Positions 1 through 22,100 of a stretch of 64,000 nt of DNA are shown piece after piece. Origin of the DNA: Candidatus Omnitrophota bacterium (lineage in GTDB: Bacteria > Omnitrophota > Omnitrophia > Omnitrophales > Aquincolibacteriaceae). Under the pieces are notes generated by a model. That model was given only the letters and a program-made list of their open reading frames with translations, had not been told where the DNA came from and searched no databases. The stretch spans positions 600 to 64,599 of the forward strand of contig JAHFHF010000006.1 in the NCBI GenBank assembly GCA_023247055.1. Direction: 5' to 3'. Position 1 is the stretch's first letter. Each line of letters starts with the position of its first letter. Made by a program: the position numbers and the translations under genes.

Positions 1-3000
1 CCGAACTCCGAAACGATTCCGGGCGAACTTGTGGTCAACGGCCGCTATTACCAATTTACTTCTTCGGGATACAATGACGAAGCGGCGGGCATGGAGGGCG
101 GATGGGCGCCCGATCCAAACTCCTACCGGTTTGTGGATGCCGCCGGCCAGCCGGATGAATATGGACAGCTGCCGGTCTATACTTCAAATCCGCAAACAGG
201 GCTGGTCACCCTGGCCGACGGCTTGACTTACCGCGTGGTTGCGCCGGATTCCGCCATCTCCGGCGGGGAACACGTGCTGCTGGTGGAAGTGCGCCAGGAC
301 AAACAAATCATCAATCCCTTCCAGCAAAGCGGCTGGAAGGCGCTCGAGATCGATGGCTTGTCTTATCTGGTTGAACTGCGCGATCAAAAACCTTATGCCC
401 TGCATCGCGAGGGCGTGACCGCGCTTTTTGATGAAGACGGCCGCATCGTGATCGACGGCAAGACTTACCGCATCGGCATGAACGACTATTATTACAATTC
501 AGTCAAAACGGGAGAGGATGGCCGGGTGCAGGCGGTTTATACCGATGAGCGCATCACCTACGGCAGTTATCCGAATATCCGCGTCTTTCCGCCCAATGCC
601 TTTACGGCCGCCGACCGCGAGTACTTCCTGGTGGAAGATTTGGGACAGGCGGAACTTTACCGCACCGAACATCATTGGCTCCCGGCGGGATATACCCAGA
701 TTTTTGGCAAAACCACGCTCAAGATTGATTACGAAGATTACGAAATTGCCAAAGTCACGCACCGCGGCTTGGAACTCGTGGCGTTTATCAAATTGGATGC
801 GCTTGGCAATCGCACGCAGATGGCCTATTACATGCGGCCCGACGATCAGGAAATCACGCTCTCCGGCGGACGCCGCTTCCGCATTGTGGGCGATGTGACC
901 GGTATTCAAAAATCGGCAACGCTGGTGGAGATCAGCCGCGCGGGCACGCTCGGCAGTGTGAGCGGTTTTGAAATCCTGAACGGTGAAAAACTGACGCCGG
1001 GTTACGGCTATACGCATGCAAGTCAGCCGCTGGCCGTCGTGCTGGACGGCGTGACCTATGAAGTCTTTCCGCGCAATGCCGCGGGCCGTATTTTTGCCAC
1101 CGACGGCCGCACGGTGTTGGCCAGCGATGCGGACGGTATTTTGAATATCAACGGCCGCCGTTTCCGTCTCGAAGAAGAAGCCGTCACGTATGAGATTTTC
1201 AACGATACGCGTGTTTCGCATTTGAACTACTACCTGACGGAAGACTCCTCGCGCCGCTACCGGTTGAATTCCGTGAGCGATGCGGCGGGCCTGCCGCAGG
1301 CTGAACTTCAGCCGCTGACAAGCGACGGAAAATATTTTGCCGCGGCGGACGAAGTCACGCTTTTTGACGGCCTGCGCTACCGCATGACGGTGAGCGCCAA
1401 AGGTGAGGTTTCCTTGACCGAAATCAATCCGCCGGCGCGGCGCGAAGCGCTGGTCAGCAAAGCTCCCGGTTTTCAATTGACGCGTCTGGCGCTGGAAGCG
1501 GGTGATGGTTCCGCCGGCCGCAATCAACTTGTGGCCAGCCGCCAGACGGGCGCCGTGACAACCGATACGCTGGGCCTGCGGCATACTCCGCTTGTGATTT
1601 TGGGCGAATCCTATGAAGTCGTGGAGCGCAGCGACGGCACGTTTGAATTTTATCCGGCCCGCAAAGTCAATGTGGATGAAATTCTGGCAGCTTCCGGCAT
1701 TCAAAATGCGGCGGAAGCCAATGCCTGGCGTGCGGCGGTGGAGAAGAGTTTCACGGCCCAAAGCGTTGCCAGCGATAAGATTTCGGGGACGGTTGTTCTG
1801 GACGGCATCCGCTACCGTATTTCCAAACATCCTGTGACCGGTGCGGTCGAACTTGCCGGCCGGGATACACGGGTCAAGCCGGACGCCGATCCCTTGGTGG
1901 CCGGCAGTATTGATTTGACGGTCTGGAAAAATACGGACGGGAGTTATTCGGTTTACTGGCCGCTGGACAAGACCGTTTACCGCGGCGACGGCGTCACCAA
2001 GACGGTGGTGCTGGGCAACTCGGTCAAATACGATATCGCTGAAGACGCGGCGGGACGCATCACGCTCAAGGAATCCACCCGGGTGATTGCCGCGCCGCCT
2101 TTGGCCCAGGTCATCGAAGTCTATGGCCGCAATTACGGTGTGGTCAAAAATACGGACGGCACGTACGCCTTCTATGACGGTTTGTATACGTATAAGTCGG
2201 ATGCCCAGGGCAAGACCGTGAAACTGGGCGAATTTATTCTGGCCAGCTATGACGACTACCTCAAACGCAGCGCCGAAGGGACGCTGGATGAAGTCCGCGG
2301 CGTGCTCTATGACATTGAGGCCGACGGACCGAACCATGTCCGCCTGGTTGATCATCGTGAGGCTGAAACCAAGATACAGCTTTTTGAATTGGGCGGGCGT
2401 TTCTATACCAGCGGCCGTGATACGGTTGGCCGTATCACGCTCAGTGACTATGCCACGGGGGAAATCGTCCTGCGTATTCCGCAGGGCACGAGCGAACTTG
2501 TCTTTGACCGCGAGACCTATACGTTGAGCGTTGACAGTGTGACCGGTTTTATCCGCCTGGTTTCGAGCCAAAGCCAGAATGCCTCGCGTGACGCGCAGGT
2601 TTTGCGCCTGGGCGAGCAAATCTATCTGGCTTCGGCCATGGGTGACGGCCGTTTCCAGTTTTATCTGGACGGGCAGCCGTTTATTTCCCAGGCGGCGGCC
2701 GGACGCGTGACGCTGGGCGACGGCCTTGAATATCATGTGACCGCCGGCGCTGACGGCCGCATTCAGCTTGAGCAAAAATATATTGACGCCTTTTCCGAGG
2801 AACGCATGTCCATTCTGCTGGACGGCCAGATCTATGACATCCTGCACACCGGCAGCCACCGCTGGCGCTTTACGGATGCCGCGGGATTGTCTTTCGACAG
2901 CGATGCCGTAACGATGAAAGTCACAATCGGCACGCTTATGTATGACTTGGTCGAACATGCGGACGGCAGCGTCACCGCGATTGCTCAAAACGATATTTCG

Positions 3001-6000
3001 ACCTCGCTCATCCGCAAGGTGGTCAATATTGGCGGCCTGCTTTATGTGGTCACGCGCCAGACGGACGGCCGCTTTGCCTTTACGGCCGGCAATGTCACGG
3101 CTTATGCCGCGCTCTCCGGCCGGCTGGATCTCGATAAGGTCTTTACGGTCACGTTCAACGAAACCACCGGCCAGGTGCGCGTCACGGAAACGGTCGTGCG
3201 CCGCAGTGCGCCGGTCGAACTCCTCGAAATCAAACAGCCGTCGCTGACGCGCCGCATGACAGTTGCCGGAAAAACCTATGACCTGAAGTATGACCGCGTG
3301 GACATGCTTGAAACCAGTCTGACCGGCGCGGAAATTCACAAACAGCGGCCGCTTTTCCAGTTTACGGATGCGGGTTCGGGGACGGTCTATGAAAACCGCA
3401 CTTATAAATTCGGCGGGTCGGTCGGGGCCTGCTCCAACGAAGAGTGCGAGAGCCAGGATATTTTAAGCACGGACCGTAATCAATTTGCCATGGATCTGCC
3501 GGAGGCCACGTTGAAACTCGAGGATTGGCCGCGGGTCTTTGCCTTTACCATCATGATCGACGGCAAATCCTACCTGATGTCCGAGACCGAGGCGCACAAG
3601 CATACGTTCTTCAGCGAGGACAAGTATTACCACTCGTGGATCCAGCCGTGCGGCGAAAAGTGTATTCAGGAGTTTGTCGAACTGCCCGACGGCAAAGGCG
3701 GTTTTGTTAAATTCGAACTTTATTACAGCAACAAGTACTACGACGAACCGGCTTCACAGGCGGATTTTGTGGGTGACCGGCTGCTGGTGAGAATTGACGA
3801 TGCGGCCGGGGCGGCCGACATCCGCGTCATTCCCAAGATGGAAATTCCGACCGAGCCGGTGGAAACGTCGCAGTATTATCTGGCGGAACGTTCGGCGCAG
3901 GACGGCCGTTTGACCCTGCGTGAGGAAGCGACCGGGCGTGCGTATGAGGTCAAACAGCGCATTTCGATCGACGGCCGCAATTACGAGGCGTCCGTGGATA
4001 GCGCAGCCGGCAAAGTTTCGCTGACCGAAGAACACGCGGCCAGCACGCGGGTGCCGGGGCGGCTGGCCGTGCGCGTGGGCCGGGATGCCGCCGGTTACAG
4101 TTATGAACTCAAGACCGACGGCCGGTTTGAATTTTCCGACGGCATTCATACCTATTACAGCACGCGCGAAACCGGCCGGCCGCAGGTCATCTTGTCGGAT
4201 GGAAACGTCTACACCATCGCTTACAACGCCGAAACCCAGGAATTGGCGTTGACCGAGCGCTATGAAATTTCCACGCCGGCCGGAGCGGGCCGTTTGAATG
4301 TCGGCGGTACGGTGTTTACGTATACGATCCGCGCCGATGGCAGCGTGCGTTTGACGGCCGGTACGAAAACCTATGACAGCCAGGGTGAGATGGACCTTGT
4401 CTCGGCGCTCAAACAGCCCATTCAGTACAAACTGCGCGAAGGACAAACACTGCCGGCCGGAGAAACGTCCACGGTGCCGGGTTATAGCGGCTTACGCTGG
4501 GAAGACGCGGGTATGGGCGTGACCAAGCCCTATCTGGTGAAGTTTGATCCGGCGGCAGGAACGTATACCGTGCGTGAAAAACCGCTGCCGGTGGACCCGC
4601 AGGACTATGTGGCCATCCGCGGTTTTGCCAAGACCTTGCAGGAAATCAAAGCTGCCTACGGCGCTTTCGGCGACACGAGTGATATTTATGATGCTGAAAA
4701 TCTGAGTTCACTCAATTACGACCGGCTCTATGACGCGGAGTATGAGCACAACAGCCTGAGCGGCTACAACAGCCAGTTCCTGTCTAACTTCAATGCCTAT
4801 GAACTGACGCTGCGCACAGGCCTTGCGCCCTGGCAGGACAGCCCGGTGGCCCTGGTGGATTACCGGGACGGCGTGCCGGACAGCAGCCTTGTCGGCTCTC
4901 AGGCGAAACTCGCGGGCGCTTATGACATTCTCTTTGATACGCCCAACCATACGCCGGGCAGCAGTTATCTGCCGGTGCGCGAATTGCAGGTCTATCAGGA
5001 TGAACTGCGCATCATGCACCCCTGGATTAACGGCGTGGAGCGTGTGTTTGAACCGGTCTACAACGACAATGCGGGCATTAGCCTGGAAACCGGTCCGTTT
5101 GCGGTTTTTGCCGGTGATACGTCAACCAACTACCGCAACCGCGGCGTGACGCTGAATGGCAAAGCCTATGACGTGGCCATGGATCCTGTGACCAAGGCGC
5201 CGGTCTTTACGGAACTTTCGTCCTACCGCGCGGCGAATGCGGATGAAGACGTTCTGCTGGTCTACCACCTCAAGGATGCGGAAGGCAACGAAACCGGCGT
5301 GGAGTACAATTTATTCGATGCCACATTTACCGCGCTGGATGTTTTCAAAGGGGTGATTCAGGCCCGCGCCAAACTTGGCGAGGCCTATGACTATAAGAAC
5401 CCGGCCAATACCTGGGAGAAGTTGTCCCTGGCGGACATCGAGGCCCAAGCGCAGACATTCCAGTACAATGCCCTGACGCGCAACTTTACCCTGCATGGCG
5501 TCAACTACCGCGTGTTTGAACAGCCGGTGAGCGGCGAAGTTTCAATTCTGCGCGCGGGCGGTACTCCGCCTGTGGTGCTGAACGCTCTGAATACGATCGA
5601 ACACAATGACCGGCTGTATGAAATCCGCAGGAATGAAGACGGCCGTATCATCCTGACCAGCGATACGGGGGAAGAGTTCCCGAGCGATCCGGACGGACAG
5701 ACGCTCAGTATCGACGATTACCATTTCGATATCAGCCGTGATCCGCTGACGCAGGCCTGGAAACTGAAGGAGCAGAGGGTTGAAAGCTACTACGGCGATT
5801 TGGCCGTTGTGGATGAAACTTCAGACGGCGGCGGCCGCATCTCTGCCCATTTTCATTCCGTCGCCAATCCGGGCGTACCCCTTGGGTTTGAAGTGCCGGG
5901 TGCCGGAACCCAGGTTGAATTTTTGAATCAAGCCGTGATTGCCGGGCCGGACGGGCAGGAACATGGTTTATTTGTGTTCCGGATTGGCAGCAGTTTTGTG

Positions 6001-7140
6001 CTTTCTGACGGGCTTAACGGCGGTATTACACAAGTGCCGGATCAATACCGTCAGATTACGATCGACGGCCAGCGCTACCAGGTTCAGGTGTTTACGAACT
6101 CTTCGGGCCAGACCCTGGCGCGCATTGAAAAAGTGCTGCGTACCCTGGATTCCAAGCCAGGCGTGCGCGCGGACGGCAAACTGTATCAGGTGCAGGACAC
6201 GCCCGGCAGTTATACCGTTCAGGTTGGCGGCAGTAAGCGCAAAATTACATGGGTGATGGCCGTCTGTGCCGGCGCCATGTGCCGTGATGTGGACCCCACG
6301 CCGTCTTACCTGCCGTTGGAATTAGAATCCAATCCGTCGCGCAATACCATTACGCTCAACGACGGCATTGAACGGACGCTGGTCATTGATCCCGATGAAC
6401 CCACGAATGTGGATATCCTGCCGGATCAGATCACGAGTTTTGATCTGCCGGATTTGAAACTGGGTAAACGTTTCTTCTACAGCACGGTCCATGCGAACGG
6501 GTCAGTCACGCTGACTGAAACCTATAGCGCCGATCCGCAGACTTACATCTCCGATCCGCTGACGCGCGAAGTGACGATCAACGGAAGAGTGTGGAGCGTT
6601 CAGGTGGCGGGCGGCAAGGCCGTGCTTACGGCGCGGAACATCAAGGAAAGCAGCGCGCTGCCGGGAACTTATGCGGAAGTGGACGGCCGTATTTACCAGA
6701 TTGAAGCGGATGCCCAAAACCGCTGGGTTTTCAGCGACGTGTATCTGTCCGGCGTGGCTTTCACGAGCACAGCCGACGGCAAGAGCGTGACGATTCATGA
6801 GCATGTTTACGATATCAGCGCTGCAGCGGGTAAGGTTTCTCTGAAGGAGCAGCCGCGCTCCTATCCGGTGAAGGAAGATCACGTCATTCTGAACAGCCGC
6901 ATTTACAAGGTGCAGATCGTGCGCGATATCCTGGGGCTGGAACGCGCCTGGCTGTCGGACGGCACGAACCTGATGGTCTCCGGCGAATTTAAAGATGCGG
7001 ATGCGGTCAGCGGCGAAAACAAACAGGCGCGCGCCGAAGTCGTCATTGACGGTAAAACCTTCCTGGTTTCGATTGAGCGCGATCCGTCTATTTACAGCAC
7101 TTTGTCGGATGAATTCCTGATTGTGAAACAGATTAAGCCC
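1..7140 (+). repeat. Array of degenerate beta-hairpin repeats with core h-x-h-x-G-x-x-Y-x-h, then 3-6 residues, then (D)G-x-h-x-h. The period is variable, about 25-60 aa.
   Basis: Translation shows tens of units. Examples are EVTLFDGLRYRMTVSAKGEVSLTE, TVVLDGIRYRISKHPVTGAVELAG, RVTLGDGLEYHVTAGADGRIQLEQ, MSILLDGQIYDILHTGSHRWRF, EVTINGRVWSVQVAGGKAVLTA and EVVIDGKTFLVSIERDPS. Similarity is at the protein level only. The nucleotide sequence is not repetitive. Confidence 0.6.
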
Positions 7141-10100
7141 GCGCCGGCGCAGGGCGGCGGCACGAGCGGTATGGAAGGCTATGAAAGCGGGGACGGCGAT
7201 CAGGACATTTTTGAGGAGTTAGGGCTGAACGACATGCCCGGCGGCGGAGGGTCCGAAATTCCCGATTGGCAGCAAGAACAACAATGGCAATTTGAAAATC
7301 CGGCGATTGCGCAAACGTCTACGCCGCAAATTACGGAAGTCCTCAAAACGGATGGCAACGAACGCTGGGTACGCATCCGCGCCCGGGTTTGGAAGTCGGG
7401 GGCTGCTGCGGTCAGTCTGGACGCGCCCCGTATTCAATCGAGCGCCGCTGAACGTCTAAGCGTCAACGGACAGGATGTTTTTGCAATTCAGGAACCGGCT
7501 GAAACCAGCGGCCGGCCAGACGGACAGCCGGGCGCCCAGGGCTATGTGCTCAATCCCAATGCGGGCATGCTGCGGTTTGTGACGCCCACGAAAGTTTTTT
7601 GGACGGAAGGGGCCACTTCAAGTGTTTCGTTTGGAGATGGGATTGTCTACCGCGTGAGCGGCGAGCCGGGAAGCCATGTCACTCTGCGTGAGACCGGTAC
7701 GGCTTCCATGGCTGTGCAAACCATGCAAATCGACGGGCGTTTCTATACGGCTTGGCAGGACCCGGATGATCCCAGCCATGGTTTCCGCTTTAACGACGGG
7801 TTTGGCGAATACGCCAGCGTCCGCGATACATTCGGTTTCTATGAACGCAACGGCGTGCTGACGTCCGCGCCTTCGCGGATGGGCGCGGGCCGTTCCAATC
7901 CCGAAGGCATGGCCGCAGCCGACATTCTGCCGCAAGCGGGCGCGCGCGAATTGGGAGAAAAGTATACGGCCAATGAAATGAATTACCGCATCAACCTGAC
8001 GGCCGACGGTTTCTACCAGGTGGGCTTGTCGGCCGCGCTCAGTGACGACATGACGGACGCCATCCGCCGTGCAGGCGCTCTGAAACTGGAACCGGAATAT
8101 GTTTTTCATGTGTTTCTGGACGGCCACTTCTACGGCGACTTCTATCTGCAGCCCGGCGAAGATTTCCGCCAGGCGGCCGTGAAACTGCGCCTGACCCCGG
8201 GCGAGCATGATTTGAAGATCGTCTGGGATGTGCCGGAATTTTATCAGCAGAATCAGCTCACGGGCGGTGCGGACCTGCGGGTGCGCCGCGTGTTCGTCAT
8301 GGCGGACCAGACTTACCAGGCGGATCTCAATGGGGACGGAGCGGTCAATGATGCGGACGAAGCCCTTTTGACGGCCCGGCTGACACCGGCCGGATTTCAG
8401 GCTGAGACTTCGCAGATCACCGGCGCGCCCGAACGCGAAGAAGTTGAAGGCGCGGTCAGCCGGCTGGTGGCGGACAATGTGCTGGAAGCCAACGGCATCC
8501 GTTACGAAGTTAGCCGCCAAAATGGCAAGTTCATGCTGGATAACGGCCGCAAAGTCTATGAGGTGGCGCCCGATGCCGCGCAGGTCAATTTGGATGGTTA
8601 CGTCTACACCTTGGTGATTGAAAACGGGCGGCTGACCGGCATGGTGGAAATCCTGCCGGATGTACGTCCGGTGGATTTGGATGTGATTGAAGCTGCCGGC
8701 CGCGTGCTTTCCGTTCAGCAGTCGGCGGACAATCCGCACGAATACCGCTTCAGCGACGGCACGAATCTATTCCTGAGTTCGGCGGCGAGCATGACGGTTT
8801 CACTGTATGGTTTGGTTTACGACATTGAAGAATTGGGCGGCGGCGGTGTTCATGTCAGCGAAGCGGCGGTTGAACTGGAACGCCCGAGCGATACGGAACT
8901 GAACCTCAATGGCACGCGCTATCTGGTGCAGCGCCTGGGTGATGGATCGTATGTGTTCTCCGAACCCGTGGAGTTTGAAGATTCTGCGATCCGTGACGGA
9001 CTGGAACAAGTCGAGATTGGCGATGTGAATTATTTTGTGGTGCGGGATCAAACAAACCGCATCCAACTGCTTAAAGAAGTCCCGGAAACCAGCCGGCTTC
9101 TAGCCCAGACGGTGGTTTTCATTGGCGGGACGAGCTATGCCGTCACGCCGGATGCGGATCATGCCGGCGAATGGATTTTCCGCAGCCCTGCGGCGCAGTC
9201 GGCCACACAGAATCGTGAAATCACTCTGAGCGGCAAGAAATACCGCGTTGATCTGGATCCGGCAAGCAGCGTCTTGACGGTCGCGCCGGTCAGCTTCGGC
9301 AGTCTGGATGTGGATAAGAACGGTCTTGCTGACGCGCAGGATTTTGCGGCCATTCAGAGCCGCTTTAATGCGCAAATTGTGACAAAAGATCCGCAGCAAG
9401 CGCAGCAGCTCGGGGCGCAGGTTGATTTTTGGTGGACCCGCATTGCCGCGGCCGCAGGCACGGAGTACGGGGACTATGGCTTTACGTATACGTTTGATGC
9501 GCCGTCGGCCGGTGATTTTATGCTGGGTCTGAAGACGGCCATGCTGCCGGTGTCCGGCGCGCCGGTTCAGTTTGATCATTTTGATTTCGACGTTTTTGTG
9601 GATGGGTCCGCCGTACGCGCTGGAATTCTGCGCGCCGATGCGTCCAGCGGTTATGTCACCCATGAAATGCCGGTAACCCTTGCGGCCGGCACGCATCAAT
9701 TCCGGTTTGTCTGGTCCAATCCCGTGCCGCGCGTCAGTTTTGGCGTGCAGTCCGCCAGCTTGCGTGACAGCGATTACCTGGCTGCAGCGGATCTGAATCA
9801 GGACCGGCGCATTGATGAAAAAGACCAGGCTCTGTTCCTGGATCAGACCGGCTCAAGCGCCTGGACCCAGGCCCTTGCGATTGGCGCCAAAACCTACACG
9901 CTTTACCGCCGTCCGTCCGGCGCCATGCGGCTGGTGGATGCGGCCGGTACGGTGATTCCGAGCGACGATCAGGGCCGGTTCTTTGTGGTGAGCGGCAAGA
10001 AATACTGGATTTCGGGCGCTAAAGATTCGGCGGTCACGCTGGTGGCCGATCATGCGGCAGATCTCAATAAAGACGGTTTGATCAATGAAGCCGATGATGC

Positions 10101-13100
10101 TTTTCTGGCCGCTGCTCTGGCCGCGCATCAAGTGGACACCTTTGCCGAATTGCAGGAATTTGAAGCCTATGAAAAAGCCTCGGATACCGGCGCCAGCATT
10201 CATGGCCTTGTTTCGAAAGGAACCAATGCCAGCGGCGAAGGCGCCATGGGCTTCATGATGGGCTTTGGCGGGGGCGAAGAAGGCAGCCTGATGGCCAACG
10301 GCCCCTCGATCAGCTTTGATGAGACTTTGGCGGAGGCGGGCGATTACCGTATCGGCCTCTCCGCCCGCAGTTTCAGCCACGAGTTTCTGCCGGCCTGGCA
10401 GGGCTGGCAGGTGACCGGCGGTTCCAGCAGCGCGTTTACGCCCGAAGGCGCAATTTCCGTGCAGCCGGGTAATCACTGGTCGAATATGCAAAGCTGGATT
10501 GAAATCAATGGTTTGAATTTTGCCGCGGACAACCGCACGGTCCTGCTGCTGAATATGTTGACCGATGCCGGCAGTTCGGGCCGCGTCTACTTCAAGCGCA
10601 CGGGCGATACCGCCTGGGATGAAGAACGCAGCGTCGACTTTGACTTAATCGCCGACGGGAACGCCCATGAATACATTCTGTCCATGAATGACAGCGAACT
10701 GTGGAATGGCACCATTACCGGCCTCAAGATCGTACCCTCGGATGAACCCTCGCACTATGAAATCCTCGGTGCGGCGTCGCGCCAGTCGGTCGATCTTCCG
10801 GCCGGGTCCGAATGGGGTCTTTACGGGCCGAAAGAAACCAGCAAGTTCCGCTATGCGGTCGTGGTTGATGGTGTTCAGAGGGGGACGTTCGATGTGCCCT
10901 GGAATAAGACGCAGGAGAAAGAAGGCTATGCGGAAATCCAGCTCAACGCTGGTGCTCATCACATTGATATCGTTGAGATGAATTTTTACGACTATCCCTA
11001 CGCTTCGATGGCGGCATTTAAATCCTATGTGTCCAAGACTCTTGTACGCCGGATTATGCCGGCGGCGGATCTCAACGCGGATAATTATGTGAATGAGGCG
11101 GATGCGCGGATTCTGGATACGCTGCGCTCGCGTTTCGAAGCGCCGAACGTTATCGGCCTGCAGGAAGAATTCTTCTCGATTTTGGATAACGGCGACCTGA
11201 CGCACCGCTTTGTGTCGCGCACGGCGCAGGGCCGCAGTTTTACAAGCGACCCGGCCACGGGGCAGGTCACCATTAATGGCGTCAAACTGCAACTCGGCTA
11301 TGATGAAGAGCGCGAGCTCTGGCAGGCGTCGCTCTTTGGCCGTGGCAGTGTCAACGTTTATGATCAGGTTCTGCAAATCGGCACTGAGAAAATAGGCGTT
11401 ACGCGCCGCAAAGACGGCAGTCTTCTTTTCACGGCCTTTGAGCGCACGGAGCCGGTGACTTTTGAATCCGATCCTGCGGCTGAACAAGTCACGATCGGCA
11501 CGCAGACTTACCGTATTGAACGGGATCCGGAGACCCTGCAGGTGCGTTTGTTTGAAAGCGCAGAAACAGCGGGGCCCAGCGGCTGGCAGTCAGCCGTGGC
11601 CGGCGGCGTTGCCGTGTGGGTGCGGCGCGAAGCGAGCGGGCTTGTTTTCCGCACCGGCGGCGAAGACCTGGAATTTAACCCGGAAACACGCCGGCTTTCG
11701 ATCCACGAGAAAAACTACACGCTTTTTGAAAACCGTCTGGGTCAGCTGACGCTGGTGGAAGTGGATCCGGCTGATCTGGACGGCGACGGCCTTGTGACTT
11801 TTGCCGATCAGGCCTTGATGAAAGCCTCGCTGGGCCGGCAGGCCGCATGGACGCTGGAAGCGATTCAGGCGCGCAATGTCGAAGGCTTTATCCGCGGCCA
11901 GCGCAGTGATCAACTGTTTGCGGTCTACGGCAGTTCGGAAAATTACCGCATGGATTTTGATCTTTTTGCCGACAGCGCCCAGCCGGCGGGGCTTGCTTAT
12001 TACAACATTATGCTGCGCGCGCAAAGCTATGACCAAAAAGCCCTGCCCGCCGATTATGAATGGCAGCTTGCCGTCGCTGTTGACGGCGATGACCGCGGCA
12101 TTGTGATCATTCCCGCGACGGCAGGAAGCGTCTCCGAGGAAAGCTTGCGCACGCTCATGGCCAACGGTGCGCATACGATCAGCCTGCGCTGGCTGAATCC
12201 GCGGCCGGGAACCAGCCTGGCCATCGACCGGTTGAGGGTCGCCGAAGAAGGCGTTGATCCGGAAGCCAACCTCGTGGTGCGTTCCGGAATTCCGGAGCAG
12301 GCGATTGGCGTGCAGACCGAACATTCGGGAGCCGGCGGACAACTCATCTTACGGACAGCGGCGGGGGAAACAGTTATAACAATTCCGGCGCAGATGCCCT
12401 GGCCCGGCCCGGATGATTTTTATTGGGCGGAAGTGGATGAAAATACGGGCGCCATTCTGCGCCAGGGTTCGCTGCGTTCCGAAGATGCAGACGAAACCGC
12501 GCAATTCCTGCTGGATGTGGAAACCCTGCCGGAAGGCCGCATCCTGGCCGCGGCTTCCTGGGACGGTTTGACGGTGACGCCGTCTTTAGCGCGCGCGCTG
12601 GAACGGCTGGGTTCAAAACTGATTCGCAGCATGGATGGCGCGCATGAATGGGCTTTTGCCGGCGTCAAAGGACTCCCTCCAGGCAGTGCTTCGGAACAGA
12701 TTCAGGCGTTAACTACGGGTGACAGCCGTTTGGATTTTGATCTGGCCATAACCGGCGGCAGCCTTGAAGACCGCCTGCGGATCAACGCGGCGGACTATGC
12801 CGTCTTCCGCCAAGGCATGAGCGACACGGCTGAGACTCAGGTCTTTACGCTGCAGGGCAAGGATTATTATGTCAGCGAAACTTCACCGGGAACTTTTGAA
12901 GTTTTTGACGGAATTTTGACGAGCGTGCAAAAAATCGTGGACGGCCGTCCGGCGCTGGATCTGGGCAGCCGGAGTTTCTTTGTGGAGCGCGGCGTGAACG
13001 GCGCTATCCGCCTTGAGGGCATTCTTACCGGCGATGTTTTTAGCGACGGTCAACTCGACGGCGCAGATCAGGACTTGCTTGCGGCCAGCCGCGGCCGGTT

Positions 13101-16100
13101 CAGTTTGGACCGCCGTGACGGCACCGTGATTTTCAACGAAAGCCAGCCGCTGGTTTATGCCGTCGAAGTGCCGGAAGACGGCCTGTATTCCGTGGGCCTG
13201 GCGGCGCGCAATTTCTTCAAGGCAGGCCTGGATTGGCAGATCGAAGTGGACGTCTATGTGGATGATGAGATTTATCCGCGGACTTCATTTGACGTGCCTG
13301 CCGGCCTCAAAGACACGGCAAATTATGTCAATGACCTCGATTTGACGGCCGGAGCGCATACGATCCATTTTTACGTGCGCGACCTATACGGCGAGGGCGA
13401 CCACATCACGCAGAATCCGCATCCTGATCTTGCGGACCAGCCGGCCGGAGTGGGTTCCGCGCTTCTAGCCGAAAATTTTATTTTCCGGGCGCAGGGTTAC
13501 CGCAGTGACATGGATCTTAACCACAATCAAAGCATTGACACAGGCGATGAAACGATTCTAGCGGGCTTGATTCTGGCCGGGCCGGTCAGCGTGCAGACGC
13601 TCGAGCCCCTGCCCGTGAAAGTCCTGCGTCTGGCCGGCAAGTTTTACCGGGTCGAAATTTCCGGCACTGCCGTGACGCTGGTCTCCGGCAGTGAAAGCAT
13701 CACTACGGCCGTGGATGAAGTGATTGAGAAGAACGGCGTGTATTACCGCCTGCTGCAAGATGCCGCCGGCGAACTGGCCTTGGCGCGGGAACCGTCCGTC
13801 TACGCGTTCCGCGATCCTGCGTTTGAATTCGGCGCGAGCCGGGCGCTAGACCGTCCTGTTGTTTACGTGCGCGGCCGTTATCTGGAAATCGATCGGGCAC
13901 CGGACGGCCGCTGGCGCTTTAGCGATGCGGTTGGCGAATTCCTGTCCAATAGCGAAAAAACCGAAGTTCTGATCATCGACAAGCTTTTCAAAATCCAGGG
14001 CGCTCAGGCCGGCGAATTGTCCCTTGAAGAAGTCCACGCCGAAAGCCTGAAAACGGTGGATTTGGTGATCAATCTAACGGGGGAAGACTACAAGGTCCAG
14101 CGTGAAGGCAGCCAGTGGCGTTTTATCCTCGCGACGAATGCGGCCGTGAGTTATCTCTCCGTCGACGGTGTGGTCACGATTCAAGACAGACCCTACGCCT
14201 TGCGCTGGGATGATCAGCTTCAAGAGTTAGTTGCGGGCAATCACCCTGTTATTTCCAGTGATCTGGCCGGCCAGTCGGTGGTGCTCGACGGAGTGCTCTA
14301 TACGATTCGCATGGATACGGCCGATTCGATCAGCCTGCTGGGTGAAGGTCCGGATGCGCTCGCGGGCGGGACTGTCCCCGGAAACCTTACGCTGGCAGGG
14401 GCGGTTTATGCGGTCGAAAAACTCATCGACGGCCGTTATGTTTTCTCCGGTCAGGTGCAGAGCCGGCCGGCGGAAGAACCCATCCGGTTGTTTGACGGCA
14501 AGTTTTACAGCGTGGCGCATGACGGCGAGTATTTTACGCTCAGCCAAGGCGGAAAGAATTATTCCAATCGTCCGCGTTTAGCGAATTTGCCGGAAGTCGC
14601 ATCGACCGGTGATTTAACCGCGTTTGAATACTTGAAAGACGGTACGGTGCGGCCGGAGATCAGCGATGTCTATGACTCTCAATCCGGCACGCTGACGTCC
14701 GGCGTTTTTACGGTTCCGGGGGATCAAAACTATACGTGGACCTGGGAAATGGCCGCGGGCGGCGAGAGCGGTACCCTGAAAATTCTCAATGCATCCGGAA
14801 CCGCTGCCCTGCAAGAAACCATCAGTGAATCCATGATGTCGATGCCGGGCGGCTGGACTTTAAATTTTCTCAACCCGTTTATTTCGGGCAAGCATGCCGG
14901 CTATAAAGTCAGCTACAACACCGGAACGAATACGCTTACTCTCACGCCCGCCGGCATCACCGGCAATTTTACCGCGCCGGATGGAACGGCTTATCTTTGG
15001 GGCCTGACGCGGCATGAGCGCAAAGACTCCGGAGGGCAGCCGGATACGCTCAATGACGGTTATGTTTTCCGCCTGAGTCAAGCCGGCGGGACGGGCCTTT
15101 ATGAAAAAACCGGTATCGTTGCGAAGTCTCAAGAACTGAATGCGGATTTCACGGGTCTTGTTCAAATGGCCGGCTCGGGCTGGATGGTGCATCTGGATGA
15201 AAACAGCGGCAAACTGCGTTTTGATCCCAAGCATTCGAGCGGGAGTTTCATTTCGGCTGTGGACGATGAGCGCTACATCTGGTCGATCGATTGGACCCAG
15301 ACCGGAGAATTTATGAAGGGGTGGACCTTTACGCTGGAGGATGAGGCCGGCGTCAATACGTTTACGCGTTCCGGTACGCTGAACAGTGATCCGACTTTGG
15401 CGATGCCTGAGACGTTTCCACAGCCGTTTGAGGGTGTTTACGCGCTCGCGAATGCCGTGGAATATCAAATCAGCTTTGATCCGCAGACGAACCGTATGAC
15501 CCTGGCGCCGCAGCGCGTGCTGGTGGAAGAAAGTTCTGACCGGATTTTGATTGACGGGCGCTGGTTTGCGATCAGCGGGACGGATACCGGCAGTCTTGTG
15601 CTGACGAATGAAATTTTGGAAGAGGCCGGTCAATACCGTTTAGCCGGCGAGCGTTATGCCCAGCAGGTTGAAACGAGCATGAACGAGATGGGTTTCCCCG
15701 GGCCGCAGGTGCTGGTGCTGACGGATGAAAACGGCCGGCGCTTTGAAAGCGTTTTGAATACCACATCCGCCGCGACCGGCCAATACGGGTATAACGCCTA
15801 TGGTTACTGGGGGCCGATGTATCAATACACCCATACGTACACGGTCACGATCAAAAACATGACGTTTGAAGTGCGCCTGCCGCCCTATGATCCCTACGAC
15901 TCCAATCCGCCGCCGCTTGAAAATTATACGCTCGTGCCGTATCAGGCCGCGGCCGTAACGGCGGTTGTGCCGGCGGGGACGCTGGTGAAAATCGGCGGCG
16001 CAATTTATGCGATTACCCCCAAGCCGGGCGTTGAAAATGTCTACCTGATTAGCGACGGCCAAACGCTGACGGAAGCTGGGCTTGGCGAGCCGGTGCGTTT

Positions 16101-19100
16101 GAATGGCATCGAATACGTCATCCGCCGCGCGCCTTCCGGAGCGCTCAGTATGATCCAGCAGGTGCAAACGCTGTCCGGGCACCAGGTGATTTTGGAAGGT
16201 GTCCGGTATTCGGTCGAAGAGCAGACGGGCCGGGTCATTCTCTCCGATGGTGTTCAGTCGTTTGAGTCCGATGACGCCAAAGCGAAGATTACGGTCAAAG
16301 ACCGCCTTTATGATCTTGTGCGCACGGAAGCCGGCGCCCTGGTGCTGGTCGAATCCGGCGTGGTCCGCTCGTACCAAACCCTGGTTTTCCAAAATAAAAC
16401 CTACGATGTCCTGCGCAATAGCGACGGTTCGATTTCGCTGCTCTATCACAAGGCAACGCATGGCACGTTGGCGCCAAAAGAATCCGTCCAGATGCCTGCG
16501 CAATTGCGCTATAAAGGCGGAAATTACACCGTGAGCACGCTGGAAGACGGCCGGCTTCAGATCGAAGGTCCCGAAGGTGTTTCCACCAGCGCGGCGGAAA
16601 CGGGCCTGATTGATTTTGACGGGAAACTCTGGCAGGCCGTGCGGCTTGCGGACGGCCGCTGGACGATTGAGGGAACATTCGAAAGCGCTCCGGCCTCCGG
16701 CCAACCGCTGTTTTTTGACGGAAAGATTTACACGCTTGCCATGCAAGCCAATCAATTCGTGCTTTCCGACGGACGCGCTCACTATACGGCGGATGTCTCG
16801 GGTTTTGTGAATTTGAACGGCCGCACGTTCTTCTGGAGCGGGACCGGGCTGGAGGATTTCCAGATGTTCAACCGGCCGTATCTTGGCAGAACCGATACGG
16901 AAATCCAGCTTGAAGGTTTGAACCTGGCCTATCAGATTGAATATTCCATGATGACGGGCCCGGTCCTTAAAATCACGGATTCTGAACGCAATGCGGTTTA
17001 TACCAGCTTTACGGATCAAACCAGGGCCTTCATGGATATCCGGGGCGTTCGCTACGAGATTACGGGCAGCTTGTATGACAGCTTCGGCGAGGGGTTTGGC
17101 CTGCGGCCGGCCGCCGGAAACGTGCCGGCTTCTGCGCCCGCCGAGGAAGGAACCCGGCTTGTGGTGGAAAACCGCATTCTCAGCGTAAGCCTCAAAGCGG
17201 GCACCGGCGATATCTATCTGGCGTCCGACGGTACGGAGACGCTGGAAGTCCGGCTCGGTGAGACGCTCAACGTCAACGGCCTTCCTTATATGCTTAGTCT
17301 GCCAGCCTCCGGCGAACTCAAATTCAGCCTGAGCAGCCGCCAGATCAGTCTGGCGCAGTTGGGGCTGGATTCGACGTCCTATCTGGCTTTTGAAACCGCG
17401 GCCGGCGAATGGGCCTTCCAGGGAACTTACGATCCCACGGGTGAATTGAGCACAAGCACGGGCGGCGGCACGCTGGTCCAAATCGGCGATCTGAAATATC
17501 ACATCGAACGCCTCCCTGACGGCGGCCTCAAACTGACCGAAACCGAAGACAGCGCGCCGGTGGTTTATGAAGATCAACTCTTCCGCAGCGACTTGCAGGC
17601 CCGCACGATCCGCATTTCCGGCAAGATCTACCGGCTCGCACTTGCGGCGGACGGGGACTGGGTCTTGAGTGAAGATTACGAAACTTCGCAGGCCCTGCAG
17701 CCGGCGGTGGAAATCGGCGGCCGCAAACTGCAGTACCGTTTAGAAGACGCGCAGGTGATCTTGACGGACGGGAAAAACAGCTTCCGCAGCAGCCGCGACG
17801 GCTCAAACGTGACGATCGACCATCGCCGCTATGCGATCCAGCGCAGCGGCAGCGCGATTACGCTTTCCGAGCCGTCTCTGCCGTACAGCCAGACGATCGA
17901 TGCGCTTGGCGCAATTTGGCTGATCCGCCGCGACGCGTCCGGAAAAATCATGGCCGACAATCCCGAAACCCAGGAAACGTTTGCCGGCGATACGGCTGGT
18001 CTCGTGATTACGATTCGCGGCGTGCAGTTTGATATCACGGGCGAGGAAGGCCGGCGGATTTTCACGCCGCGTATTTCAGCCGAACCCACCCTAGCCGACG
18101 GCGCTTTCTTGCTGGCCGGCCGGATGTTCTTTTACAAGACCGAAGACGGGCAATTGACCGTGACGTATGCGGACAGCGGGGCCGCGGCCGGCGCAGCGGA
18201 CGAAAATGCCGGACTGATCGAAATCGCCGGTACCGTTTATCAAGTGCAGCGCACGAGCGGCCGGCTTGAATTCCATAAGCAAGCCTTTGAAGAAGCTCAG
18301 GAAATTTCAGGAGCGGTGTTTTACATCAACGGAACGATTTATGAGGTTCAGTATGATGAGACTGCCGGGTCTTTCGAAGTACGCAGCGGCCAGAAAACTT
18401 ACACCAGCGATCCGGCCACGGGGCATATTTTGATCGGCGAAATTGCGGCTGAAATCCGCCGCGATACCGCGAGCGGCGAAATTACGATCACGGTGCCCAC
18501 AGCAGCCAGCGTCAAGCGCGCCGACCAGGCGGTTGAACTCAAGGGCCAGATTTATTGGCTGACGCGCCTGGAAGCCGGCCGGTACGAAGTTTATGATCCG
18601 GCTGCGAAAACGCCGCATGCGTCCCGCCTTGAACAAATTGACGGCGTCTGGCTACCGGTGGTGGATCTGGCCGGCAGTGTTTACCGCGTGGTCGAAGACC
18701 GCGGTGAACGCATGCGTCTGGAAGAGGTGACAGAGGAATTTATTTCCGACGACCGCTTCAAGGTGCTGGCCGGCGGTAAGGAATACACGATCGGCCAGGA
18801 TTCCGTGGATCAACGTTTCTATCTCGATGACGGCACGCACCGTTTCTATGAAACCGGGGTGGATGGCATTATCAAGATCGGCGCTGATTCCTTTAGCGTG
18901 CGTGAACTGGCCGGCCGGCGCTTGTTTAATCCGGAGGTGGTCAAGCGCGCCGATCTGGATCAAAACGGCGAATTCAACGCCGAGGATGCGCGCATCTTGA
19001 CGCGCCTGGCCAGCCACTACAAAGACATCAACGGCGACGGTCTGGTCGATCAGCAGGATATTGACGCGTTAAATAAAATTATTGATCTCACGCCTGAGAT

Positions 19101-22100
19101 CCGTGATGCGGTGCCGGATGGTCAGATTACATCCGATGATTTTACTTCGCTTGACGTCAACCATGACCGCAAGATTGATTACCGCGATGCCAACGCGCTC
19201 AACCAGGTGGTGCAGAACCGCTTTGACATCAACCGCGACGGCCTCACCTCGAGCGGCTCCGGCGTTCCGGCGACGGATGACCTGGCATTTTTCAACGCCC
19301 TGTTTAGCCAGATCCGCCAGCTGCAGGCTCAGGGCATTGTGGTCGAGCCGGCCAAACTAAAAGCGCTGGATGTCAACAATGACGGGCTGGTGACGCATGA
19401 GGACGTGACGGCGCTTGGAAAAGTGATCGGCAAGAATTTCGATATCAATGGCGACGGCAAACTCGATGACCTGGCCAATCGCAAGGATGAAAAACGGCTC
19501 GACGATGTGATCAGCGCGCTCGCTTTGAAGATCAAACAGAACGAATTGACGCTGGCCGATGTGAACCGCAACGGCAAGGTCGATGACAAGGACCGCTCCG
19601 ACCTTTCGGAATCGATCCGCAAGTATACCCAGCTCGCGGTTGCCGCGGATTATGACGCCAGCGGCCTTTTTGATTACGGCGACCTCGTAGCCCTGCAGCG
19701 GGATGTCGGCGAAATCCGCCGCGGCAGCCTGCTCAGCCCGCAGCTGCTCTCGCGCGCGGACATCAATAATGACGGGCGCGTGGATGACCGTGACTGGAGA
19801 ACGCTGGAGCAGGGCCTGGCTTCGCACCGGGATGTCAATGAAGACGGCCGCATCGACAGCAAAGACAGCGAGGTGCTGGAACGCTATCTGAATTTCACAG
19901 CCGGCGAAATTATTCCGGCCCGCGAAATCCGGCTCGAGACGCCGGAGGGGCTCGAGAGCCAAATTACGGGCAGTCAGTCCATTGTGCTGGATGACGAGCG
20001 CTATGTTGTCTCAAAGAACACCGAAGGCGCTTATGTGTTGACGTCCCGCGACGAGACGTTTAACGCCTATGGCGGAATCAATATCGTGGAAATCGGTGAG
20101 CACATTTACGACATCTACGAAGATCCGGACGGCAAGATCCGTCTGGTGGATCAGGAAGCGCGCACGCATCAGAGCATGCACCGGGCGGATTTCGTCATCC
20201 GGCTGGGTGAGCGGGAATATGACGCTTATTTCAAAGATTACGGCCGTTTTGAATTTAAATCCGCCGAGTGCTTTGACGGAACCGAAAACTGCGAAACGGC
20301 GCTGAGCGGTTTTGACGACAAAGTAACACTGCAAAATCAGGTGTTTATCGTTGAAACCGACTCGCTGACGCGTCAGGCCGCGCTCAAAGCGGCCTCGATG
20401 CGCAGCCTGAAACGCGCGGACCAGGTCATTGAACTGGAAGGCAAACGCTACGAAGTGGTCAATCATTTTGACGGCAGCTATACGTTCAAAACGGATGAGT
20501 TTGAACAGCGCTCCGACCGCGATCAGAAACGCGTCAAACTGGACGGAATTTATTATGACATCCACGAAGATCCGCTGACGGGCCATGTGCAGCTGGCTGA
20601 ACAGCATGCGATCAGCCGGGTGCTGGCTGACCAGGTCATCCGCATTCAGCGCAAAGATTCGCTTTCCTTGTCCGAAATTTATGCCGGGGCGGATACGCGG
20701 GCGCTTTTCCTGGCCAGCCAGGGCGGACAGAAAATCGGCAGTCCGGTCGTTTATGACGATTCTTACCTAGTAAATTTCAACCTTGACGGCACGACGACCT
20801 TTACGCATGAGAAGACCGGCACGAAATACACAAGCGGCCGCTCCCAGGAAGACGGCACTTCCGTTGTGACGATTGACCGGATGGCTTTCCGTATTTTCTC
20901 CGATTACGAAAACGGCGGGATCTATATCGAGCAGGATCATGAAAAACTGGGCTCCGATGCGGGCGCCGGTGCGGGCCGCGGCCAAGTCACGTTCTTGAAA
21001 GCCGGCGAGCCGGTGACTTACGAATGGATTTATGATGATGCGACCGGCAAGCTCAAGATCAACGGTGAATGGGTCAACCCCGAAACCAATACAGCCTTGC
21101 TCGACGGCCAGCAATTCCTGATTAATTTTGATCCGGAAAAAGGCCGCCTGGCCATGGAACAGGCCTACCTGCGCTCAAGCCGCGTGGCCGATCAGCGTTT
21201 GATTCTGGAAGACACGTTGTTTAATGTTTCGCACAACAAGGACGGCTCTTTCTCGCTCTTTGACGGCGAGACCAGCTTCCGCACCAACCCGGTGTCCCGC
21301 AAGGTGACGATCCGCGGCCGGGTTTACGATGTGATTGAAAACAGCTACAGCGGATCGATCACGCTGGCCGAAGAGTACAGCCGTGAAAGCAAGCCGGTCT
21401 ATGATCAGGTCATTGAACTCAACGGCAAAAATTATTTTGTGCGTGAAAATACGCAGGATGGCATCACGGAGTTCATCCACGCTGACGAGACGATCCGCTC
21501 CACGGCCAGCCGGACCTGGCAGGACGCATCCATTGATTTTACCAAGGATAAGATGCCGCAGGGCTGGGCGCCGGAGACGGGCAGCTGGCGCATCATGGCC
21601 GGCCGCGCCGAATCGCTGGTGCAAGGCCAGCAGGCCTCGTTTGCCCGCACCGGGCTTGTGACCGAAACTGATTTTACATTGTCGGTCGATCTCTCCTTTG
21701 AAATCCTCAGCGATGAACCCGCCGCGCCTGCCGGCACAGCCGATGAGCGTCTCTGGGAAGGCTCAGTCCTCTTTAATGTGATGGATCGCGATAACGCTTA
21801 CGCGGCCCGCCTGTTTGAGCGGGGCGGCAGCCGGTTTGTGGGGTTATACAAGCTGGTTCACGGGATTGAGTATCCGCTGGCCTTGGAGCGCGAACTGCCG
21901 TTTGAGTTCAGCACGGAGACGGATTACCGCATGCAGATCCGTGTGGAGTCCGGCAAAATCACGCTGGCCATGAATGATCAGCCTCTGCTGGAGGCCCAGG
22001 ACCATTATTTCACCGGCGGCGCCGTGGCGCTCGCTGGCAAGGGCCGCGATGTTCAGTTTGACAACATCGTTCTGCATCACGCGCACGAACTGGATCAGCC

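Follow-up and report, generated by a model that had tools for sequence, protein, structure and literature searches.

A 64,000-nucleotide stretch of a Candidatus Omnitrophota genome (GenBank assembly GCA_023247055.1, contig JAHFHF010000006.1, positions 600 to 64,599 of the forward strand; the whole stretch is called the window below) raises the question of what the first several thousand residues that it encodes are made of. An original prediction, based on the sequence alone, proposed more than 100 degenerate G-x-x-Y repeats that are reminiscent of YD/RHS repeats but distinct from them, and that may represent a new beta-hairpin family forming a very long fibre. Is such a repeat real, does a known family claim it, and what could it build? 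We find that the first ~7,400 amino acids (aa) are built largely of an old, strongly diverged and uncatalogued repeat of ~35 aa, present in ~80-110 copies. The repeat family is real, and the class of giant adhesin-like proteins that carries it is already known.

In a six-frame stop scan, frame 0 of the + strand was open across the whole window (nt 1-63,999, 21,333 codons, zero stops). This single open reading frame (ORF; 1..63999, +) runs off both window ends, and the window captures an inner part of a giant gene, which is longer than 64 kb and encodes at least 21,333 aa. The repeat region is part of the window-filling ORF and not a separate gene.

The repeat unit follows the pattern h-x-h-[D/N]-G-x-x-Y-x-h ... 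G-x-h-x-h over ~35 aa. Three example units quoted in the original prediction are all present in the frame-0 translation (aa 597-620, 3829-3852 and 7101-7124). Residues 1-8000 contain the motif G-x-x-Y-x-[VILMF] 59 times, versus ~8 expected from shuffles, and the same comparison gives no excess past aa 8000. An iterated, ungapped position-specific scoring matrix (PSSM) of 16 columns identified 97 units, versus 3.7 in 50-aa block shuffles. Because this PSSM had been trained on the sequence that it scored, it was cross-validated by halves, training on one and testing on the other. Under these conditions the count was 79 units at a threshold of 7.5 bits (null 3.3) and 107 at one of 5 bits (null 12.7). 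Inspection by eye of 70-aa gaps between units added at least 11 further degenerate units. The ungapped PSSM with its shuffle and cross-validation controls was used in place of HMMER iteration, which shed members on so short a unit (from 52 to 36), and a MAFFT alignment of overlapping five-unit windows was discarded, as it aligned by identity and was staggered. The repeat itself is thus real, and "more than 100" lies at the upper end of the supported range.

Start-to-start spacing between units has its mode at 34-36 aa. When positions are numbered from the glycine of the pattern, the consensus has V/I/L at -4 (90%), I/L/V at -2 (82%) and D/N/G at -1, followed by G at 0 (76%), K/R at +1, Y at +3 (82%, aromatic in 96%) and V/I/L at +5 (95%). 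Further along come D at +8, G at +11 and hydrophobic residues at +13 and +15. An alternation of two unit subtypes, A and B, is weakly supported (AB 5, BA 5, AA 3 and BB 0 neighbours, with half of the units unclassified).

At the nucleotide level, no tandem repeats or meaningful direct repeats were found in nt 1-23,000. The sole direct-repeat family in the DNA is 37 nt long and 62-73% identical, and is a trace of the motif itself. The units are therefore old, in agreement with the original prediction, which had also described the DNA as non-repetitive.

The units occur in runs of irregular length, from 1 to ~28 units, several of them with 8-9 units, and all on the + strand. Based on the PSSM, spacing and units seen by eye, a near-continuous N-terminal array of ~25-30 units occupies 19..3366 (aa 7-1122), and probably continues upstream of the window. 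Runs of 1-4 units follow within 3913..7833 (aa 1305-1487, 1713-1938, 2016-2091, 2188-2383 and 2540-2611), separated by non-repeat modules. A run of 8 units at 8473..9309 (aa 2825-3103), later used for modelling, has dockerin-like Ca-binding motifs on both flanks. Between 9865 and 12954, scattered units and short runs (aa 3289-3364, 3753-3935 and 4279-4318) lie between dockerin-like, CBM35-like and ILEI modules. PSSM and spacing then delineate a run of 9 units at 13615..14595 (aa 4539-4865), and the longest contiguous array, with ~28 units, at 15976..18966 (aa 5326-6322), the second half of which (aa 5823-6322) was also modelled. The last units, mainly pairs, are found in 19972..22218 (aa 6658-6732, 6807-6881, 6953-6992, 7099-7174 and 7367-7406), interleaved with a DUF1080-like lectin-fold module, in a stretch that is 49% identical to an Omnitrophota ortholog. 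The final clear unit spans nt 22,099-22,218 (aa 7367-7406). The array is thus present where it had been predicted, over nt 1-21,480, but this end coordinate falls short of the last clear unit.

Does a known family claim the units? Pfam was scanned with the whole window at E-values up to 0.01, and with the 997-aa array (aa 5326-6322) at E-values up to 10. Across the window, only Dockerin_1, EF-hand, ILEI and Peptidase_C39 were above threshold. The 997-aa array gave only sub-threshold matches (DUF7244, flgK_1st_1, DUF1958, PQQ_2 and Flagellin_D3), the 8- and 9-unit runs had no relevant Pfam match, and NCBIfam had no relevant match to the units. Neither Pfam scan detected RHS_repeat (PF05593), an RHS core, PAAR or a toxin domain, nor FG-GAP, Listeria-Bacteroides (Flg_new) or T9SS-associated repeats, and the units had no Pfam match to CW_binding_1 (PF01473) or Choline_bind. 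Motif searches over all 21,333 aa found Y.YD..G[RNK] and YD..G[RNK] zero times and Y.YD once. The original prediction had correctly described the units as distinct from YD/RHS repeats, without the Y-x-Y-D-x-x-G-R core and without an RHS core or toxin tip in the window, and the families that it had named for comparison (YD, FG-GAP, Listeria-Bacteroides and T9SS) do not claim the units above threshold in Pfam or NCBIfam. Judged by these profile searches, the units are uncatalogued, as none of the known repeat families reaches its threshold on them. Membership among the hairpins of flagellin D2/D3 domains was also rejected, since the sub-threshold Pfam matches concern single units only (18.1 bits for Flagellin_D3 on one unit and 19.3 bits for flgK_1st_1, both with a cut-off of 24.2).

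Relatives of the unit are few. An exhaustive phmmer search with aa 5330-6300 against 1.84 billion representative proteins returned 10 proteins at E-values up to 10-3, of which 8 carry the unit, all of them singleton clusters named "hypothetical protein". The only long homologs come from one groundwater Omnitrophota genome. One (P0001, 5,283 aa) aligns colinearly with aa 3778-9130 (28-38% identity), and the other (P0006, 2,523 aa) with aa 824-3241 (39% identity), so that jointly they are colinear with the window over aa 824-9130. Both are encoded on contigs of GCA_016196555.1, a metagenome-assembled genome (MAG; Candidatus Omnitrophota bacterium isolate NC_groundwater_836...). From their colinearity and common assembly it follows that they are two pieces of one orthologous giant gene. 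A 524-aa gene upstream of P0001 (L001 1-1,575, contig JACPXL010000010.1) overlaps the P0001 start by 4 nt, and probably belongs to that giant ORF, from which gene calling or a frameshift would have separated it.

The PSSM trained on the window transfers to these relatives. With it, two independent homologs gave 42 and 32 units, four metagenomic fragments had 4-6 each, and two unrelated repeat proteins had 0. The latter two were rejected as relatives on this basis (P0004, an Ig-like tandem adhesin, and P0010, with a DGHLWH propeller-like repeat). The Tyr of the unit is identical in 75% of orthologous unit pairs, versus a background of 38%, and Tyr, Gly and the aliphatic positions are all conserved above background between orthologs. 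In a scan of GTDB representative genome contigs, only the Omnitrophota ortholog was found. A degenerate-pattern scan of JGI metagenomes and a tblastn search against phage records gave no match. Three word-indexed homology searches returned nothing useful, and also missed the true homologs. One unit-carrying fragment of 474 aa (P0003, NCBI MCA9017713.1) is encoded on a 1,425-bp contig of a MAG labelled "Planctomycetaceae bacterium"; either the family reaches past the Omnitrophota, or this short contig was mis-binned.

What could the units build? AlphaFold2 was used to model two runs. For aa 5823-6322 (14 units), a multiple sequence alignment (MSA) of 15 rows, composed of orthologs and non-overlapping paralogous runs, gave an all-beta model with 3-4 strands per unit, a predicted local distance difference test score (pLDDT) of 73.8 and a predicted TM-score (pTM) of 0.41. 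For the 8-unit run (aa 2812-3114), an 18-row MSA also gave an all-beta model (pLDDT 76.0, pTM 0.36). The models are locally confident, with pLDDT values of 80-95 in many blocks and a hairpin turn exactly at [D/N]-G. The 14-unit model has confidence breaks every 2-4 units, and the 8-unit model has low-confidence linkers after every second unit. Relative to the Gly, strand 1 extends from -5 to -2, the two-residue [D/N]-G turn follows, strand 2 runs from +1 to +8 and strand 3 from +11 to +16, and units often add a strand 4 at about +20 to +23. The type I' hairpin turn is classically formed by Asp/Asn-Gly. In such a hairpin, positions -4, -2, +3 and +5 would lie on one face of the sheet, and sharing this face is the likely reason why all four are hydrophobic.

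With both models, Foldseek found no structural neighbour with a TM-score above 0.2 in the PDB. Its best 3Di matches were to repeat proteins with antiparallel meanders, namely the TcdA CROPs, teneurin, the DDB1, BamB and WD40 propellers, RhsA and OspA. For the 14-unit model, the TcdA CROPs reached an E-value of 5e-7 with a TM-score of only 0.11-0.14, and teneurin reached 1e-5. Over both models, teneurin-2 (best E-value 1e-5) and RhsA (1e-3) had TM-scores of 0.13-0.19 at a root-mean-square deviation above 17 Å. TM-scores to hairpin superhelices (CROPs and YD/RHS) ranged overall from 0.11 to 0.19. A search of the BFVD viral folds gave nothing at E-values up to 10-3, and no closed propeller was seen in either of the two AlphaFold2 models, which were built from shallow MSAs. 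The models support regular beta-hairpin units, a hairpin or meander being predicted for each unit as had been anticipated from the sequence. They do not support the very long fibre or solenoid that had been proposed alongside (pTM 0.36-0.41, confidence drops between blocks of 2-4 units, no neighbour above TM 0.2), and none of three assemblies (rigid long fibre, tubule or closed propellers) is demonstrated.

The nature of the carrier protein bears on the role of the units. Its domain set suggests that it belongs to the Dockerin-type giant proteins of Omnitrophota, a class that West-Roberts et al. (2023) defined by this set of domains, and for which they proposed membrane anchoring, an extracellular location and roles in prey attachment and in the processing of cell-surface polymers (10.1101/2023.11.21.568195). 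For a Dockerin-type protein, the same authors reported AlphaFold-predicted antiparallel beta-helix tubules of ~1,500 aa, which they likened to RHS, without a description at the sequence level (10.1101/2023.11.21.568195). Dockerin-bearing giant ORFs in Omnitrophota were also described by Seymour et al. (2023; PMC10066038) and in a 2026 preprint with a Fennoscandian data set (10.64898/2026.06.07.730766). T2SS-like loci and loci for carbohydrate import are expected as neighbours of the genes of this class. The concept of RHS-like beta assemblies in this class is not new, and the sequence family is undescribed; the idea of a new family in the original prediction stands for the sequence family, but not for the notion of such assemblies in this class of proteins.

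With a probability of roughly 0.55, we favor the reading in which the unit arrays are a spacer or stalk, rich in beta structure, on which lectin-like and Ca-binding modules are displayed. Each unit would be a small antiparallel beta meander, in which strand 1 leads through the two-residue [D/N]-G type I' turn into strand 2, whose Tyr at +3 and aliphatic residue at +5 would be packed on the sheet face that -4 and -2 occupy with their aliphatic side chains. Through a second turn (D..G), strand 2 would continue into strand 3 and often on to strand 4. The units would follow each other head to tail in runs of 2 to ~28, with interruptions of two kinds, dockerin/EF-hand-like Ca-binding modules and modules that resemble lectins or CBMs (CBM35-like, DUF1080-like and ILEI). 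The runs may then act as semi-rigid spacers or stalks that hold out the carbohydrate- and Ca-binding modules, and the whole protein may be a very long extracellular adhesin that contacts prey or host cells.

Several points weigh against this spacer or stalk. The low pTM values of the models leave the geometry between units, and hence the idea of a stalk, unestablished, and the MSAs behind the models are shallow (15-18 rows) and mostly paralogous. We entirely infer the extracellular location, the stalk or adhesion function and the higher-order geometry. A role in ligand binding, in place of one in the core, is conceivable for the conserved Tyr. Finally, the TSP3 and discoidin repeats of published Dockerin-type giants were not found by Pfam in the window, beyond which the ORF extends.

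A bolder form of the idea is tentative, and on balance doubtful. The units would be a new beta-repeat family confined to Dockerin-type giants, an "unrolled" propeller blade of which 100 or more copies are strung together into a surface appendage that has the form of an open superhelix or tube and measures hundreds of nanometres. If true, ultra-small predatory or episymbiotic bacteria would make contact with other cells by means of a new architectural principle.

The kinship to propeller blades invoked here could also be taken literally. The units would then be divergent beta-propeller blades of the PQQ/BamB type, and runs of 7-9 units (28 being 4 x 7) would form strings of closed propellers that serve as ligand-binding platforms, with no fibre. 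Searched against PDB sequences, HMM profiles of the two modelled alignments match the natural PQQ-like propeller 3hxj (E-values 5.2e-11 and 3.8e-8), and profiles also match the designed propellers Cake, Scone and Bagel (6.5e-20 for Cake10, 8e-17 and 4e-14 for Scone-E), the Cake blade being Pfam PQQ_2 (PF13360). The alignment runs strand for strand onto the four blade strands (DG-x-x-Y-A-I ... DG-T-x-x-W-x-F). BamB appears in the Foldseek list with a probability of 0.85-0.92, and several runs have 8-9 units. However, the profiles also match unrelated tandem Ig-like RTX adhesins (4p99, E-value 1e-9). As a control, nine tandem copies of the real blade scored 47 bits, versus a 99.9th percentile of 19 bits and a maximum of 34 among 2,000 arrays of tandem shuffled blades. 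The one shuffled array that reached 34 bits, together with the adhesin matches, indicates that E-values against tandem targets are strongly inflated; the real blade nevertheless scored above all shuffled controls, so the resemblance exceeds what composition explains. PQQ_2 itself reached only 12.8 bits on the 997-aa array (E-value 0.093, cut-off 27.6) and gave nothing on the 8- and 9-unit runs, and a single-sequence search against PDB sequences had no match. Moreover, the unit period is 34-36 aa whereas blades have ~40-44 aa, the 8-unit run remains unclosed in the AlphaFold2 model (pTM 0.36) with a TM-score to BamB of 0.13 (0.13-0.15 over both models), and run lengths vary irregularly from 1 to ~28 in place of the fixed 6-8 blades of propellers. 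We consider strings of closed propellers unlikely. The profile matches are reproducible and suggestive of a remote similarity to blades, not of membership, and the unit may thus be a diverged meander of the blade type and not an entirely new fold. The proposal of a new beta-hairpin family is borne out in that no catalogued family claims the units above threshold, and weakened by this similarity as far as a wholly new fold is concerned.

It is quite unlikely that the hollow "antiparallel beta-helix" tubule of West-Roberts et al. is what the long arrays build. Such a tubule would be an open superhelix of hairpins whose paired strands face outward, and would serve as a rigid protrusion or conduit. 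With two hairpins per unit, one pair could be inner and the other outer, the arrays are up to ~1,000 aa long, and the top Foldseek neighbours (TcdA CROPs with a probability of 0.98-0.99, teneurin and RhsA) are open hairpin superhelices. Yet the link to the published model is one of description, not of sequences or coordinates, and the alternation of hydrophobic residues points to just one buried face of the sheet. A tubule would need much longer runs than many of those seen, and the 500-aa model, with its pTM of 0.41 and breaks every 2-4 units, does not resemble a rigid tubule.

That the units are highly diverged YD/RHS repeats forming a toxin-encapsulating shell is highly improbable, and membership is effectively refuted: apart from a superficial likeness in spacing, Gly and Tyr and weak Foldseek matches to teneurin and Rhs effectors (probability up to 0.97, but TM below 0.2), the Y-x-Y-D-x-x-G-[RNK] motif is absent from all 21,333 aa, Pfam and NCBIfam report no component of an RHS system in the window or array, and the many short runs interrupted by other modules are unlike a ~1,000-aa shell.

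The remaining modules of the ORF, all on the + strand, include two arrays of dockerin/EF-hand-like Ca-binding motifs. The first, at 18964..19970 (aa ~6322-6657), is supported by Dockerin_1 (E-value 5.4e-24) and internal BLAST links, and the second, at 22200..24000 (aa ~7400-8000), by Dockerin_1 (4.4e-32) and EF-hand_7/1/5. Besides these arrays, such motifs also occur in single copies, with further instances at ~8,308-8,382 and ~36,000-36,210 (+), and they lie on both sides of several unit runs, such as aa 2825-3103. An ILEI domain (PF15711) at 12433..12672 (aa 4145-4224) is above the curated cut-off, with E-values of 1.5e-7 and 8.9e-9. The DUF1080-like (3-keto-disaccharide hydrolase, PF06439) module at 21622..22071 (aa 7208-7357) covers profile positions 38-185 of 187 with an E-value of 9.8e-4, and its 19.6 bits are below the cut-off of 26.8; the ortholog also has a faint DUF1080 match. 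The CBM_35 match is weak and below the cut-off (E-value 0.03). A Cys-containing module (..GACSNEECESQD..CGEKC..) at nt 3,247-3,930 (+; aa 1083-1310) has no Pfam match, and lies in the 250-aa bin (aa 1001-1250) that has the most 5-residue words in common with the ortholog P0006 (22 words).

A Peptidase C39-like domain (PF03412) is found at 34957..35205 (aa 11,653-11,735), with an E-value of 7.1e-10 and 39.3 bits versus a cut-off of 22. It is embedded in a probably helical region with a weak hydrophobic segment on either side (aa 10,790 and 11,787), an arrangement that hints at self-processing of the giant polypeptide, as the literature proposes for the class. These two segments are the only 19-mers in the 21,333 aa that are even weakly hydrophobic, and since both are located after aa 10,700, the repeat region is free of membrane spans. 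The SecA-like domain of published Dockerin-type giants was not found by Pfam in the window, both ends of which the ORF runs past.

The composition of the ORF changes downstream of the repeats. Residues 1-8000 are rich in Gly, Thr, Asp and Tyr, a composition typical of beta structure. From aa 8000 to 14,000, Ala makes up 17-20% and Leu 12-13%. This stretch of ~6,000 residues (nt ~24,000-42,000, +) has very low Gly and Tyr and zero units, and probably is a long alpha-helical region; colinearity with the ortholog P0001 reaches into it as far as aa 9130. The rate of PSSM matches in aa 8000-21,333 is near the null rate. Four isolated matches (e.g. QFVVVVDGKIYRQS) at nt ~43,360-44,500 (+; aa ~14,450-14,840), distant from the main arrays, may be stray units or chance matches. 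The opposite strand has a stop-free stretch at 502-3,462 (-) and ~20 others, of 250-987 codons and all in one common relative frame. These minus-strand ORFs (up to 987 codons) were rejected as genes, as they are antisense shadows of the + strand ORF.

The giant proteins of Omnitrophota are among the longest polypeptides known and are almost wholly dark to domain databases. The unit defined here accounts for roughly half of a 7,400-residue stretch of one of them, and its definition (consensus, register, conserved positions, secondary structure and a transferable PSSM) gives annotators a handle and provides a candidate for a Pfam-type repeat. As the family is extremely rare (8 clusters among the 1.84 billion representatives), it may serve as a marker of the giant adhesin class. 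With its Ca-binding modules on either side, the 8-unit run (aa 2812-3114) is a tractable construct for distinguishing fibres, tubes and strings of propellers.

Several known systems resemble the units or their carrier. The cell-wall-binding and clostridial toxin CROP repeats and the YD/RHS shells are also tandem beta-hairpins with a conserved turn Gly and a conserved strand aromatic, and they are known from extracellular settings related to adhesion or carbohydrates. However, CROP, cell-wall-binding and YD repeats have 20-30 aa and one hairpin, whereas the units have 35 aa and two hairpins, and the units also differ from YD/RHS shells by the absence of the YD core. With PQQ-like and BamB blades, the units have in common the four-stranded antiparallel meander per repeat and the pattern DG-x-x-Y-x-h ... 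DG-x-x-W/F-x-F. The published work on Dockerin-type giants does not describe the G-x-x-Y unit at the sequence level, but the likeness of the carrier to these proteins extends over several other features: a giant single ORF with many dockerin/EF-hand Ca-binding modules, the ILEI, DUF1080-like and CBM35-like modules and the C39 peptidase-like domain, a long N-terminal part that is free of membrane spans and mostly dark to Pfam, and long homologs that come only from an Omnitrophota MAG.

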